Shown here: positions 6,619-58,559 of the stretch, piece by piece
Layout of the letters: the number at the start of each line of letters is the position of its first letter
Numbering within the stretch: the stretch's first letter is position 1
NCBI GenBank assembly: GCA_964016885.1
Contig: CAXHJY010001592.1
Span: 1-64,000 of the forward strand
Direction of reading: 5' to 3'
Length of the DNA stretch: 64,000 bases
DNA from: Eledone cirrhosa
Taxonomy: Eukaryota
Translations under genes and position numbers: made by a program
The notes under the pieces: generated by a model
Told to the model about the DNA's origin: nothing
Databases searched by the model: none
Seen by the model: only the letters and a program-made list of their open reading frames with translations

Positions 6619-6878
6619 ATTATATATATATATTATATATATTATATATATATATTATATATATATTATATATATTATATATATATATATATTATATATA
6701 TATTATATATATTATATATATATATATTATATATGTATATATTATATATATTATATATATATATATTATATATATATATATTATATATATTATATATATA
6801 TATATATTATATATATATATTATTTTTTAATAAGTTTCCAGATTCCACGCTTTGCCTGGATACTTATATGAGAAGAGT

Positions 6879-6958
6879 CTTCCCTGACGACGGAATGATT
6901 CTCTGTGTTTTCTTCTGAAAATTTATTTATTCCATTCCAGAAACTAATTAGTTGGAAG
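6879..6958 (+). ncRNA. Type I hammerhead ribozyme, long stem II
   Basis: CTTCC-CTGACGA-C-GGAATG...CATTCC-A-GAAAC-TAATTA-GTT-GGAAG. Stem I is CTTCC/GGAAG and helix III is palindromic (AACTAATTAGTT). Confidence 0.85.
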
Positions 6959-7400
6959 TGATATTTTAGTAAGTAAGTTAATTTTATAATTTTCTTATTT
7001 TACGTCTCTCATATTATTGTTCTGCAACCCCATGCATTGAACCACAAAGTTACTAAGACAAAATCTATATATTTGCTAGCATTGATATGCATCTGTATGT
7101 ATATATATGTTACTAGATATTAATTCTTTATAATTATCTCCAAATTATTTGTCGAGCAATATTGGCCATGACTGCTGCTATGGTAGCAGGCAGGCCGCTG
7201 TCTTATTAGTAAACCACTTTCCACTGATTGACCTCGATGTCACGTGATTGATTCCTTTTGAATTAGCCACCGACGCAGAGGCAGGGATTTTCTCAATGGC
7301 TAGGAATTCAGTCCACGCTTTGCTATTTTCTATCCACTGAATTATTTTTTAATAAGTTTCCAGAGTCCACGCTTTGCCTGGATACTTAGATGAGAATAGT

Positions 7401-7480
7401 CTTCCCTGACGACGGAATGATTCTCTGTGTTTTCTTCTGAAAATTTATTTATTCCATTCCAGAAACTAATTAGTTGGAAG
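7401..7480 (+). ncRNA. Type I hammerhead ribozyme (second tandem copy)
   Basis: Same motif as 6879-6958, 522 bp downstream. Confidence 0.85.
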
Positions 7481-7678
7481 TGATATTTTAGTAAGTAAGT
7501 TAATTTTATAATTTTCTTATTTTACGGCTCTCATATATATTATATATATATATTATATATATATATTATATATATATATATATATATTATATATACGTTA
7601 TTCCGGGTTGAATCGGAGGTAACCACAGTAAGTAAGGTACTCAATACATAGCAGAGTATAACAGTTTTAATATAGATG

Positions 7679-7729
7679 AGATTCTACAGGACTAGAACTG
7701 TTTCATTCATTAGAAATCATCAGGAATCT
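7679..7729 (-). ncRNA. Type I hammerhead ribozyme
   Basis: Reverse complement of 8703-8753. Confidence 0.85.
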
Positions 7730-53724: not shown

Positions 53725-56700
53725 ATATATATATATATATATATATATATATATATATATATATATATATATATATATATATATATATATATATATAATA
53801 TATATATATATATATATATAAGAAGAGCGATAAGCAGCCCGTGTGTACGAAAAAGTTGTATTTGTATATAAACAGAGTGGGTAACCAAGATTACGCCAAT
53901 GATTATGTAAATATGCACATTTTTAATGTGCAGACATGTAAGCTTGCCAGAGAATACAAATTTCCCTGTAAATTGAAAGATTGATAAACACCCTTAATCG
54001 ATTTTCGGACCTAGTTGTGTCCTCATCAAAAGGCATGTATACAACCACAAGGAACCACGTATTTGATGGCCTTATATTTCCATTGGCTGGACGTATTAAT
54101 TTATATCTTAATTAACTACAAACAGGAACGATAATTATATGCAAATTAGCACGTATATCTCAGAGTACTACTAATAGCGAATGATAGATAGATAGATATG
54201 TTTCTTTATTAGCCACAGGGGCACAAAAGAAGGGGACAAATACAAAGGGGGAAGTTTACATACAATAAAAACGTGTAAAATGTTATCACAGATGGAATTT
54301 AAAAGTTAGTCGATTTTCCCCAATAGAGGGAGACAGTTTATATGGGTAACACATACCCCCGAAAAAAATGTGCAACCCTCATCTCCAGGAGTACGAAGAG
54401 CTTGTACTCCTTTCCTCTCCTCCTCCTTTTCCTCAATAGATAGATAGGTAGATAGATAGAGAGATAGATAGATAGAGAGATACATAGATATATAGATAGA
54501 GAGAGTATGAGAGAGAAATATATATATATAAGTAGACCTCGGTTTCACTGCTAGTATCGGTTGCATCTCAGCGTACTCAATAGGTAATGTTATGTAAAAT
54601 CCCAGAGTAGACACATAGTTTTTCGCTTCGATGCAACACACGTAAATGGGTACCTTCAATCTATACCCGTACTCGAGTTTCTGCCACACTTAATGCAGCA
54701 ATACAGTGAACAGCATCCACTGTCTGCATTTATTATGCAGCAATGCCCAATCGGCGCATGTCGCTTCATCAGCGGGTTTTGTCTAATCAATAACCAATCG
54801 ATCGACAGAATTCAATTCCAGTCCGTGTCGGCTATGACAGTGAATGCGACGGTCAACAGAGTATTACATTAGCAACTGAAATCCCTACGCGTCATCACAA
54901 TGCCGTCAACTGATTGGCTATTGGTTCAGAAATTTACGTGACGGTAGGAGACGAAATTCAAAATAGTTCCGCTCCCGCCATAAGCTCTCAGCCAACGTAT
55001 CTCAAACACAAATTAACAATTAAGTGAAACATTGGTTATTAGAGAAAATCAGTCTCTAATCGCTGTACAATAGAATGGTAGCATTCAGCTCCAGTCTCCA
55101 AGTACCATGGAGAGAGAGAGAGAGAGAGAGAGAGAGAGAGAGAGAGAGAGAGAGAGAGAGAGAGAGAGAGAGAGAGAGAGAGAGAGAGAGAGAGAGAGAG
55201 AGAGAGAATGTACATATATAAGCACACAGACTCACACAATATCTTCAGAAGAAATTAAAGTTAAAAAAAAGTAATAAATTGTGAAGCAAAGAATGAAAGG
55301 AAGAAGTAGTGAAGTGGAGGATATGAACAGAGGTGGGGGTTATACATATATAAATATATCTATGTATGTATATATATGTATATATATATATATATATATA
55401 TATATATATATATATATATATATATATATATATATATATATATATATATATATATATATCACTATATATATATATATATACATACATACATACATATATA
55501 TATATATATATATATATATATATATATATATATATATATATATAGTATGTACACGTACATACATATATGTATACAAACGTACAGTAGTATGTATATATAT
55601 ATACATACATGCACACATATATATGTACGTATGGATTCACCGAACATTTATTATAATGCTCGGTGTGTTTGTAAACAATCATCCCGTATTAAGCCGTAGT
55701 GTCCAGCAACCATCGTTGCTCGTTTGTTCAACACTGACAAAGGAACGCTGTACAAGCTTATTAGCTATCTATAATATATGCAATTATATATATACATATA
55801 TATATATATATATATATAGTACGCAGTTTGATTAAGGAAGTTATTTGAGATAAACATAAAATATAAACATTTACGTCACAAATATCCTTGAGATATTAAT
55901 TAATTGAAGTTAATTACTTACGTATAAGTCAAGTAACTAGTATTGAGTTCTTCAGGCCAGTGTTGTCGCAACTCATGTATGCACTAAATACACTATATAT
56001 ACACTATATATACACTATATACACAATATGTGCGCTATACAATCATGACATATGATACTGTTGGAGGAACAAGCAAAGGTGATACATGGCACCAGAGCAA
56101 CGTGAAATAATGTGTCACCTGGTCTGGGGATCGAAACTAAGACCTAACGATTATGAGCCCCAAACCCTAACTAGTAGATCACACACTTTTACTGATATTT
56201 CAATACTCTTCATGTTTTCGATAAATCAGTACTAAAAAACCCCATTTCCTAGGTAAAACAGAAATAGATAGATAAAGAGAGAGAAAGCTTGAGCGAGAGA
56301 GAGAGAGTGAGAGAAAGAGAGAGAGAGAGTGAGATAGAGTGTGTGTGTGTGTGTGAGAGAGAGAGAGAGAGAGAGAGTGAGAGAGAGTGAGATAGAGAGA
56401 TAGATAGATAGAGAGAGAGAGAGAGAGAGAGAGAGAGAGAGAGAGAGAGAGAGAGAGAGAGAGAGAGAGAGTGAGTTTGTGTGGTATATTCAATGTTGCT
56501 TCAGTTTCTTTTTCTGTTTCCATTATCCCCTGTCCGCCGATGTCTCTTACATTATACACACACACACACATATATATACATACACACGTACATTGTATGT
56601 ATGGATGTATATATGTATATTACACACACACACACACACACACACACACACACACACACACACACACACACACACACACACACACACATATATATATATA

Positions 56701-56957
56701 TATATATATATATATATATATATATATATATAAACAATTAAGTTAAAGATGTACATCCATATATGTATACTGAAATACTAGTATGTATATGAATACACAC
56801 ACGTATACATATGTAGATGTACCAAGTTTTTTCACTGGTCACTTTACTGTGAGTGGCCAGCTATTCTGTATGTAAACACACAGACAAACCGGTTTTTAGA
56901 GTCATACTGGTTTTTGAGGAAACACCTTTCCTCTATTCTCCAGAAAGCCAGACAAGG

Positions 56958-57002
56958 AATATTGAACTAGTTTCGTTGTTGTTACAACTCATCAGCAATA
57001 TT
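56958..57002 (-). ncRNA. Type I hammerhead ribozyme
   Basis: Minus strand: AATATTG-CTGATGA-GTTGT-AACA-ACAAC-GAAAC-TA-GTT-CAATATT. Confidence 0.9.
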
Positions 57003-57769
57003 TACCTATCTTCCGGCCTTTCTAGAGAATCGTAAAAGCACATATCGTTATATGCTTTTTCTATGAAAATTAGTAGTGGGCAGACTAATTTGCATAGAGT
57101 GTGAGTAAGTACCGGTTCAACGGAGACGATAAAAACAAATAACGAAACGAAATTAAATTTCGTTTCGTTTGTAACTCACTTTTGTATGACTGACGCTTAA
57201 ACAATTAAGTTAAAGATGTACATCCATATATGTATACTGAAATACTAGTATGTATATGAATACACACACGTATACATATGTAGATGTACCAAGTTTTTTC
57301 ACTGGTCACTTTACTGTGAGTGGCCAGCTATTCTGTATGTAAACACAGACAAACTGGCTTTCTGGAGAATAGAGGAAAGGTGTTTCCTCAAAAACCAGTA
57401 TGACTCTAAAAACCGGTTTGTCTGTGTGTTTACATACAGAATAGCTGGCCACTCACAGTAAAGTGACCAGTGAAAAAACTTGGTACATCTACATATGTAT
57501 ACGTGTGTGTATTCATATACATACTAGTATTTCAGTATACATATATGGATGTACATCTTTAACTTAATTGTTTAAGCGTCAGTCATACAAAAGTGAGTTA
57601 CAAACGAAACGAAATTTAATTTCGTTTCGTTATTTGTTTTTATCGTCTCCGTTGAACCGGTACTTACTCACACTCTATGCAAATTAGTCTGCCCACTACT
57701 AATTTTCATAGAAAAAGCATATAACGATATGTGCTTTTACGATTCTCTAGAAAGGCCGGAAGATAGGTA

Positions 57770-57814
57770 AATATTGCTGATGAGTTGTAGCAACAACGAA
57801 ACTAGTTCAATATT
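57770..57814 (+). ncRNA. Type I hammerhead ribozyme
   Basis: AATATTG-CTGATGA-GTTGT-AGCA-ACAAC-GAAAC-TA-GTT-CAATATT. Confidence 0.9.
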
Positions 57815-58559
57815 CCTTGTCTGGCTTTCTGGAGAATAGAGGAAAGGTGTTTCCTCAAAAACCAGTATGACTCTAAAAACCGGTTTGTCTGTGTGTTTAC
57901 ATACAGAATAGCTGGCCACTCACAGTAAAGTGACCAGTGAAAAAACTTGGTACATCTACATATGTATACGTGTGTGTATTCATATACATACTAGTATTTC
58001 AGTATACATATATGGATGTACATCTTTAACTTAATTGTTTAAGCGTCAGTCATACAAAAGTGAGTTACAAACGAAACGAAATTTAATTTCGTTTCGTTAT
58101 TTGTTTTTATATATATATATATATATATACATACATACACATATACATTATCTCATACATAGGCCACATACAAACATAAACACTGTAGTGTCAAATCAAG
58201 GTAGTTTATCAAGTTCAGTGCTATTTGCATTAGATCTTATATATTAGTTTCGGATTTAGACACAAGGCCAGCAATTTGGGACGAAGTGGAAGTTGATTGA
58301 ATTATAATATAATTGACATGAAAAACAAACACATTCAATTTACTAAATCTCACAATGTCATGAAAAACCATTGACATTATATAAAAAATAATTGAGCAAT
58401 ATCTAATAAAAACAAAGAACACTATTAAAGGGAGCAACAAAAGAAGAAAAAGGAAATGAAGAGAAGAAAGAGAAAAATGTGTCAAGCCACGAAAGAAAGT
58501 GGTGTCACAGTCTGAGCGGTTTCACAGCTGCGCCTCACGGACAAAAATGGAAAAGACGT

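Follow-up and report, generated by a model that had tools for sequence, protein, structure and literature searches.

Which enzyme moves the retrozymes of animals, and what the hammerhead ribozyme does in Penelope-like elements (PLEs), are standing questions, for which the published support is co-occurrence and terminal homology. Both are raised by the first 64 kb of a small unplaced contig of Eledone cirrhosa (CAXHJY010001592.1, assembly GCA_964016885.1), which is called the window here. It is 34% GC, and TA, CA and TATG microsatellites are plentiful. According to an earlier reading of the letters (the sequence-only reading), the window holds about 18 intact-looking type I hammerheads of about nine families, all in PLE-type elements embedded in (TA)n, and autonomous PLEs and ribozyme RNAs without an open reading frame (ORF) form a helper/parasite system. 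In the analysis described here, it appears likely that the hammerheads belong to PLE 3' ends in (TA)n, and that the ORF-less repeats are copied in trans by a Penelope reverse transcriptase (RT) with a GIY-YIG endonuclease (EN).

The strict type I descriptor (CUGANGA, a paired helix II, GAAA, helix III, UH, and helix I of at least 4 bp) gave ten matches in the window, all within the 18 noted before, whereas 100 local dinucleotide shuffles gave a mean of 0.05 and a maximum of 1. The relaxed descriptor, which was tuned on the window itself, gave all 18 motifs and one extra match absent from the earlier list (core at 54029, minus strand, with a C3U core), and none in 15 shuffles. All 18 motifs fold as type I hammerheads and are predicted ribozymes, but only ten are canonical. 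Each of the other eight departs from the canonical form in one or two ways that hold across its family: at 6879 and 7401 (family C) the helix II base has a C.A mismatch, and at 7679, 8703 and 36493 (families D and H) it has U.U; an additional G directly follows the core at 12339 (family F), and the motifs at 44909 and 49851 (family I) have a U4C core plus A.G. The deviant forms predominate in the fetched copies of families C, H, F and I; thus, the deviations in these four are the family form and not decay. The motif at 9268 (family E) has the helix III loop UGCAAA in place of the family palindrome UGCGCA. Papers are cited here for the available parts of their text: published PLE hammerheads include forms with a U3-A8 core and forms in which a base ahead of helix II is unpaired (PMC4209133), and an axolotl motif with U.U at the helix II base self-cleaves, better as a dimer (PMC7229834).

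Self-comparison sorts the 18 motifs into nine families, the number supposed earlier, and the six broken copies noted before (17561, 31594, 33544, 52141, 55743 and 61285) are all recognisable. In Rfam, five of the six family A motifs match Hammerhead_HH9 at 32-38 bits, under the gathering score of 52; among the best 150 of 396 rows, which were swamped by microsatellite miRNA models, no hammerhead row lay outside family A. All loci examined (1.3 Mb) give 19 motif clusters, one a likely chance singleton. The 19 families have unrelated stems and all retain the core and three helices, and 12 of the 19 family representatives have a perfectly palindromic helix III. Every element in the window has its 3' end at a TA tract, as had been claimed, the right end at 17223 having just 7 nt of TA.

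The genome was sampled in 80 evenly spaced 10-kb stretches (800 kb) at round-number positions, small chromosomes being somewhat over-represented. The sample contained 45 relaxed and 31 strict motifs (relaxed motifs in its two halves, 19 and 26), and each of six shuffles contained 0-1. The relaxed density of 56 per Mb (bootstrap 36-80) corresponds to about 170,000 motifs (110,000-240,000) in the assembly of about 3.0 Gb, and the strict motifs extrapolate to about 116,000. Downstream (TA)5 within 350 nt was found for 40 of the 45 motifs, against a background of 24%. The two checks proposed with the sequence-only reading, density against shuffles (0-1 in the window as well) and distance to TA, therefore both came out in its favour. 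Across the sampled stretches, motif count and TA count are correlated (rho 0.48). The window has 297 motifs per Mb, about 5 times the genome average, and 44.5 TA runs per 10 kb vs 18.6 in the sample; thus, it is a nesting hot spot. Two TA tracts each host two families, 36207-36224 (B with H) and 12538-12555 (F with G), and such nesting explains the clustering of the motifs. Ribozyme biochemistry could draw on this genome-wide stock of motifs for naturally occurring core variants, namely U4C, C3U, U3-A8 and a mismatched base of helix II.

The commonest sampled motifs are E-related families with a TA-palindrome helix III (loci L246, L258, L263, L266, L277, L282, L156, L160 and L172; L numbers denote loci elsewhere in the genome). 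These have no intact copy in the window, where a defective one may lie near 35373. Long imperfect TA arrays with 13-17-nt higher-order periods stand beside PLE ends at 1-2242, 3237-3652, 6616-6820, 8769-9137 and 10429-10936, and locus-specific periodic TA flanks likewise surround many insertions.

Three families of the window, A, C and H, are ORF-less tandems:

6824..7541, plus strand: family C, ORF-less tandem, 522-bp unit, 1.4 units, hammerheads at 6879-6958 and 7401-7480
15363..17223, both strands: family A insertion 1, 469-bp unit, 2.2 units (minus) and 1.8 units (plus), hammerheads at 15655-15698 (minus), 16123-16167 (minus), 16489-16533 (plus) and 16961-17005 (plus)
56731..58110, both strands: second family A insertion, matching insertion 1 at 87%, with 1.4 units (minus) and 1.6 units (plus), hammerheads at 56958-57002 (minus) and 57770-57814 (plus)
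36225..36736, minus strand: family H, 424-bp ORF-less tandem, hammerhead at 36493-36535, inserted in the terminal TA tract of family B
55535..55769, minus strand: broken family H copy with core deletions, motif near 55743

In these families the longest ATG frame is 27-71 aa, the GC content is 35-37%, and the predicted circle is highly paired (62-70%). Family H is related to family A (69% over 224 nt). The family A query, made without the TA tract, gave at least 443 genome matches (39 of 886 candidates scored). From the best-scoring matches 20 arrays were chosen and the two window copies added, a non-random draw; unit positions are counted from the predicted cleavage site. The listed full units are 97-100% identical, and so are copies on different chromosomes. 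A single inversion is present in 21 of the 22 insertions (the exception is L023). The ends lie at unit positions 300-302 and 227-234 in 19 of the 22 (L036 and L037 have one aberrant end each), 42 of 43 3' ends adjoin TA, and the arms reach about 15 units. The inversion breakpoints differ among all 21 inverted arrays; the joints show microhomology of 1-8 nt in 12, small gaps in seven and a long overlap in an internal palindrome in two. Of 19 arrays, 12 have their longer arm at the long end and seven have it at the short end. Family C ends at 179-184 and 61-65 (both visible in 8 of 13 insertions), and family H at 271-277 and 219-221 (5 of 14). The window copy of family C stops at the short end of its family, with TA on both sides.

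Five of the nine families (B, E, F, G and I) are 3' ends of coding PLEs, four of Hydra and one of Neptune type. These five are pieces of truncated coding elements and do not represent independent RNAs; the ORF-less families are the three tandems. For family D, a coding parent was not found by tblastn or neighbouring-frame checks of the loci examined. The coding elements of the window are as follows:

44871..50101: Hydra-clade PLE of family I, with the short end on the minus arm (48763-44871) and the long end on the plus arm (48764-50101), hammerheads at 44909-44955 (minus) and 49851-49897 (plus)
46402..48762, minus strand: family I ORF, RT and GIY-YIG, 787 of 819 codons, the first 32 lost to 5' truncation
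3655..6615, plus strand: degenerate Hydra-type PLE, RT and GIY-YIG frameshifted, 41-60% to the family I protein by tblastn
9138..10440, minus strand: family E, Hydra-type PLE 3' end, hammerhead at 9266-9336, GIY-YIG frame upstream in L200 and L201
11081..12537, plus strand: Neptune-type PLE of family F, truncated at its 5' side, with a frameshifted RT thumb and GIY-YIG (tblastn), hammerhead at 12339-12383
12561..13085, minus strand: family G, Hydra-type PLE 3' end, hammerhead at 12717-12771, TA tract common with F
29569..36209, both strands: family B, single inverted Hydra-type PLE 3' portion, terminal hammerheads at 29664-29723 (minus) and 36118-36177 (plus), GIY-YIG arms about 31987-32634 (minus) and 32732-33222 (plus), defective internal second motifs at 31594 (minus) and 33544 (plus)

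The single family I ORF encodes an RT followed by a C-terminal GIY-YIG domain. Its translation contains RVRWRTF (the RWK motif, K to R), HADKTNN (DKG changed to DKT), CNCRANRTC (the CxCX5C linker), CNLC (CxxC) and CQH (CxH), and no CCHH; the endonuclease motifs of families B, E and G are equivalent. Accordingly these families are assigned by motif to the Hydra clade, I by RT and EN motifs and B, E and G by EN motifs. Family F has the linker CIDKKCITC and, in L180, CTEGQC ... H ... H (a CCHH GIY-YIG), and is classed as Neptune type by the linker and CCHH motifs only. In loci elsewhere, a Hydra-type endonuclease lies upstream in 2 of 11 for family E (1.5 kb in view), a coding frame in 7 of 11 for F, and a Hydra-type GIY-YIG in 7 of 11 for G, with an 856-aa RT-EN frame in L238. 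For family B, a linked GIY-YIG was seen in the window copy and also in four of the ten loci that were extended. Near 6365, the PLE at 3655..6615 carries a U3-A8-core hammerhead whose helix I is broken and which is absent from the earlier list. The family I protein has 304 homologues at E<=1e-20, mostly of about 700 aa, one named homologue being from Argonauta. A Pfam search of the window PLE frames detected neither RT nor GIY-YIG families; even so, it was overstated that an ORF-based annotation would miss the system completely, since tblastn finds the ORFs.

Family I appears to be active. Its 3' end is 100% identical in all 40 scored genome matches. With a TA-free query, all 26 long ends other than tandem junctions run into TA (19 perfect, 7 imperfect), the remaining 4 of 30 being tandem junctions, and the opposite, short end lies at 3897-3898 in all nine inverted copies showing it. 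The window copy has a 161-166-nt tail at the long end and a perfect inverted repeat of 1172 bp. The unit is 4199 bp including a 3' region of 1.7 kb, and 22 of 24 ORF-start loci are partial tandems of this unit with an exact junction, of which 18 have frames open across the 686 codons in view. Several upstream repeats exceed 1.3 kb, far 5' of the cleavage site. The window ORF lacks its first 32 codons, and thus this copy is not a helper; full 819-aa ORFs are intact in L242 and L243. The autonomous PLEs of the sequence-only reading have candidates in these loci. At the short end of four copies (L045, L059, L061 and L079), reiterated 7-9-nt copies of the terminal bases are seen, behind which telomerase-like slippage at priming is a possibility. 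L048 shows multiple template jumps.

The footprint of the ORF-less arrays, namely one inversion with fixed long and short 3' ends in (TA)n, matches that of the active Hydra element. Since the same footprint is found on both, the ORF-less arrays are very probably mobilised in trans by a Penelope-like element. In published descriptions, Hydra elements carry hammerheads and insert in (TA)n, and a tail and an inverted copy are PLE hallmarks (PMC8557442). Hydra, and not Neptune or Naiad, is the probable helper. Relative to the predicted cleavage site, the ends are displaced 42-300 nt downstream, and the arms traverse that site repeatedly. Thus, the template is not a linear cleaved monomer and should be a circle or an uncleaved multimer; a circular RNA is moderately favoured. 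As either arm can be the longer one (12 vs 7), both ends should be primed or cut separately, and a simple fold-back from one primed end is ruled out.

In the proposed mechanism, read-through transcription of a tandem would be followed by self-cleavage, probably as dimers via the short palindromic helix III, and the product would be ligated into a unit-length circle. Two priming events would then take place at a nicked TA target, one per fixed position, and reverse transcription would run more than one time round the circle. Finally, the two cDNAs would be joined at 1-8-nt microhomology or with a few added bases. The circle model explains the regeneration of tandems (PMC4209133).

Among family A motifs, 112 of 118 have an octamer at 50-150 nt on the upstream side of the core, as have 17 of 19 family H motifs and two of four family J motifs. 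The background is 24 of 3960 windows, with 0-2 per coding family, and family C is without the octamer. As A and H are related, their counts are not independent. We infer that the octamer may be a promoter; the octamer promoter of newt satellite 2 is a parallel only, and the relevant literature was not found. The octamer lies about 80-117 nt upstream of the core and is followed by a TATA-like word in families A, H, J and the L148/L247 family. In A and H alike, it sits 37 nt inside the long-end junction.

The other hammerhead features of the window are listed below:

7600..8770, both strands: family D, inverted pair, hammerheads at 7679-7729 (minus) and 8703-8753 (plus), with the long end on the left and the short end on the right, each bordered by TA
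17497..17615, plus strand: broken hammerhead near 17561, an 80% relative of family I
52086..52275, both strands: family K, a palindrome truncated at the 5' side that lacks the first core box (motif 52141)
53821..54200, minus strand: family J, hammerhead at 53988-54036, C3U core, octamer upstream, relatives 74-82% identical
61276..61388, plus strand: broken D-like hammerhead, motif 61285

Family K is also present at L144, L036 and L219; its full copies elsewhere have a U3-A8 core and a long helix III (at least 4 bp), which could permit cleavage as a monomer. In the L172 family, the 5' ends and inversion centres cluster at -81 to -93, and small palindromic copies result.

Several other repeats were observed. 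An abundant repeat of about 185 bp, resembling a short interspersed nuclear element, is present at 13300-13485, 14014-14207, 22305-24618, 39131-39329 and about a dozen more places; ARAGORN found zero tRNAs in the window. A TA-flanked element at 52598-53725, resembling a miniature inverted-repeat transposable element, is bounded by terminal inverted repeats of 66 bp and contains a long, perfect hairpin (53046-53276). Fragments of the type of long interspersed nuclear elements (LINEs) lie at 2045-2889, 18513-19292, 26298-27410 and 27374-29480, and two frames match zf-RVT. The tandem 343-407-bp repeats at 27374-29480 have no hammerhead match.

Several results weigh against the proposed mechanism. 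In a comparison of A, C and H with the 3' regions of the five coding families, microsatellite matches only were found. As no common 3' sequence links them, no helper is matched, and helper assignment by 3'-end homology was abandoned; of the supposed helper/parasite system, the common insertion footprint is supported, and a sequence match for any pair was not obtained. The tail lengths vary by family, about 56-161 nt. TA is also close on the 5' side in 28 of 44 sampled motifs, partly because the insertions are short and inverted. The ribozymes themselves gave modest signals. In family J, covariation was 90% of cells paired (slid controls 14-54%), yet 126 of 500 shuffles were as high, and the other families are too uniform for covariation. 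The minimum free energy z-scores of 11 motifs range from -2.4 to +0.4. Variation in the family A ribozyme is not measurably depleted (private variants, 6 of 70, expected 6.7; shared variants, 1 of 33, expected 3.2), and selection on it is not detectable in these counts. In Xenopus, dimers were cleaved in just one of nine cases (Li et al. 2026, bioRxiv 10.64898/2026.07.22.740005). Furthermore, 21 variants recur in subsets of the units of single family A arrays, some periodically. A monomeric circle is therefore insufficient, and multimeric templates or later unequal exchange are needed.

The 5' ends also do not cluster at the cleavage site. Two copies of family I began at 3849 and 3852, but none did so in 30 new loci (nearest 3857 and 3832), and bystander copies of eight families show no cluster there. 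Instead, the 5' ends cluster by family: in family D at -38 to -46, the 5' edge of helix I, in 11 of 18 (the window, L158, L283 and L036), where the inversion centres cluster too and small palindromic copies result, and in family K inside helix II, where 17 of 29 matches are truncated palindromes (family K as a whole has 16 sites in 14 of the 80 sampled stretches). As these sites are structured and off the cut, the clusters suggest stalling. A common cut-site motif was also considered; TAT/AAC-TGCTC follows both family I ends, and has no clear extension to A, C and H.

In another explanation, the same Penelope machinery copies multimeric read-through RNA that stays uncleaved, and the hammerheads travel along as weak or dispensable passengers. 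This explanation accommodates the lack of 5' ends at the cleavage site, the unit-subset variants (counted from the 3' end, those of L022 are in register on the two arms), the eight of 18 motifs off the canonical core, and the commonness of palindromic K copies without the first core box; Naiads, moreover, spread without canonical hammerheads (PMC8557442). However, the core and three helices are retained in 19 families with unrelated stems. Without a circle or a template jump, tandems could only become shorter from one generation to the next, yet arms as long as 15 units and upstream repeats of more than 1.3 kb are seen, and circular retrozyme RNAs were shown in coral, mussel and axolotl (PMC7229834). 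We consider passenger hammerheads on an uncleaved template unlikely. The ORF-less arrays might also be satellites, in which single PLE terminal fragments, after one insertion, were expanded locally by unequal crossing-over, a scenario found in Li et al. (2026). Units differ less within an array (2.9 differences) than from array to array (5.5), and some variants recur periodically. Nevertheless, both ends are fixed, multi-unit arms flank an inversion with breakpoints differing in each of the 21 arrays, and the copies on different chromosomes are near-identical as described above. In none of 55 loci is a coding frame directly joined to an array of A, C or H, the few RT/GIY-YIG matches being separate neighbours by their coordinates. 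A satellite origin is largely refuted, and we regard it as quite improbable.

The two fixed offset ends and the inversion match family I exactly, as well as the published PLE structure, and the arrays have no poly(A) tail. It is thus very improbable that the ORF-less units were moved by another element (RTE/CR1-type LINEs or a DNA transposon) that converged on TA, although frames for LINE-type RTs are numerous and the sequence comparison yielded no helper. Target duplications are unreadable within (TA)n. Lastly, the window is the TA-rich start of a small contig on which the relaxed descriptor was tuned, and chance matches in AT-rich DNA or an artefact of an unplaced contig could be suspected. 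The shuffles gave 0-1 matches, and the same families recur on chromosomes in the independent genome sample. Chance is refuted by these two results, and the probability left to this explanation is negligible.

Trans-mobilisation by a Penelope enzyme is thus retained as the likely explanation of the ORF-less arrays. We tentatively suggest, as a possibility that combines several steps, that the ORF-less retrozymes are octamer-driven circular RNA parasites which hijack active Hydra elements without a common 3' sequence, in one of the densest hammerhead populations on record. If so, a Penelope enzyme carrying out rolling-circle reverse transcription would have left its first direct footprint in the fixed offset ends, and helper and parasite would be young enough for the cycle to be rebuilt in cells.

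According to Craig et al. (2021, PMC8557442), the PLEs of the Hydra clade with a C-terminal EN and hammerheads in (TA)n include Hydra-1_Obim of Octopus bimaculoides, and the clade is defined by RWK, DKG changed to DKT, CxCX5C, CxxC and CxH, and no CCHH; its elements are generally below 3 kb. Family I resembles this clade in its single ORF with RT and C-terminal GIY-YIG, in the RWK-type, DKT, CxCX5C, CxxC and CxH motifs with no CCHH, and in the 3' hammerhead, the (TA)n target, the partial tandems, the inverted copy and the tail. It differs in the unit of 4199 bp (the size of the clade is a tendency and non-diagnostic), in the U4C core, and in its very recent amplification (99-100% copies). Its tail of 161 nt differs from the 30-40 bp described for PLEs in the available text. 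The stems of the Hydra-1_Obim motif, as given there and compared by eye, differ from those of all window families. Neptune elements are defined by a CX2-5CxxC linker and a CCHH GIY-YIG, and family F resembles them in its CX4CxxC linker, CCHH-type GIY-YIG, unpaired purine at the 5' end of helix II and TA-flanked ends.

Non-LTR retrozymes, lacking long terminal repeats, were defined by Cervera and de la Pena (2020, PMC7229834), who named PLEs as the likely helpers. For vertebrates, co-occurrence and homology of the termini were put forward as arguments that PLEs are the helpers (Li, Clavereau and Pollet 2026, bioRxiv 10.64898/2026.07.22.740005). Families A, C and H, called retrozymes here from DNA structure, with the circular RNA predicted, share with them the ORF-less tandems, one type I hammerhead per unit, GC below 45%, the short palindromic helix III, the highly paired predicted circle and the co-existence with PLEs. 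Their units of 424-522 bp are larger than the 170-400 nt typical of invertebrates, and are within the 51-972 bp of Li et al. The fixed offset ends, the single inversion and the (TA)n target are not seen in the available retrozyme descriptions. In Xenopus, 21 of 57 families are homologous to a resident PLE end according to the available text, whereas none such was found for A, C and H. Non-autonomous Chlamys elements, MRC1 among them (PMC8557442), are likewise PLE derivatives with no ORF, in multicopy head-to-tail insertions; there a 3' sequence is generally common with autonomous families, and most Chlamys elements are without hammerheads. The axolotl has 126,247 hammerhead motifs (PMC7229834) in a genome of 28 Gb (Li et al. 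2026 preprint), about 4 per Mb, compared with about 56 per Mb in the present genome. In literature with few subscription papers covered, neither such a density nor hammerhead retrozymes with fixed offset ends, inversion and TA targeting were found reported, and in the available text of an octopus repeat annotation (PMC13282606) the words 'ribozyme' and 'retrozyme' do not occur. As ORF-less arrays and an active coding element with the same footprint occur together in near-identical copies, trans-mobilisation and the circle model are directly testable. Hammerhead-bearing Hydra elements in (TA)n are known already, and it has been proposed before that retrozymes are parasites of Penelope elements. 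The common insertion footprint, the density and the young helper-parasite setting are added here; they define no new system and extend the known one.

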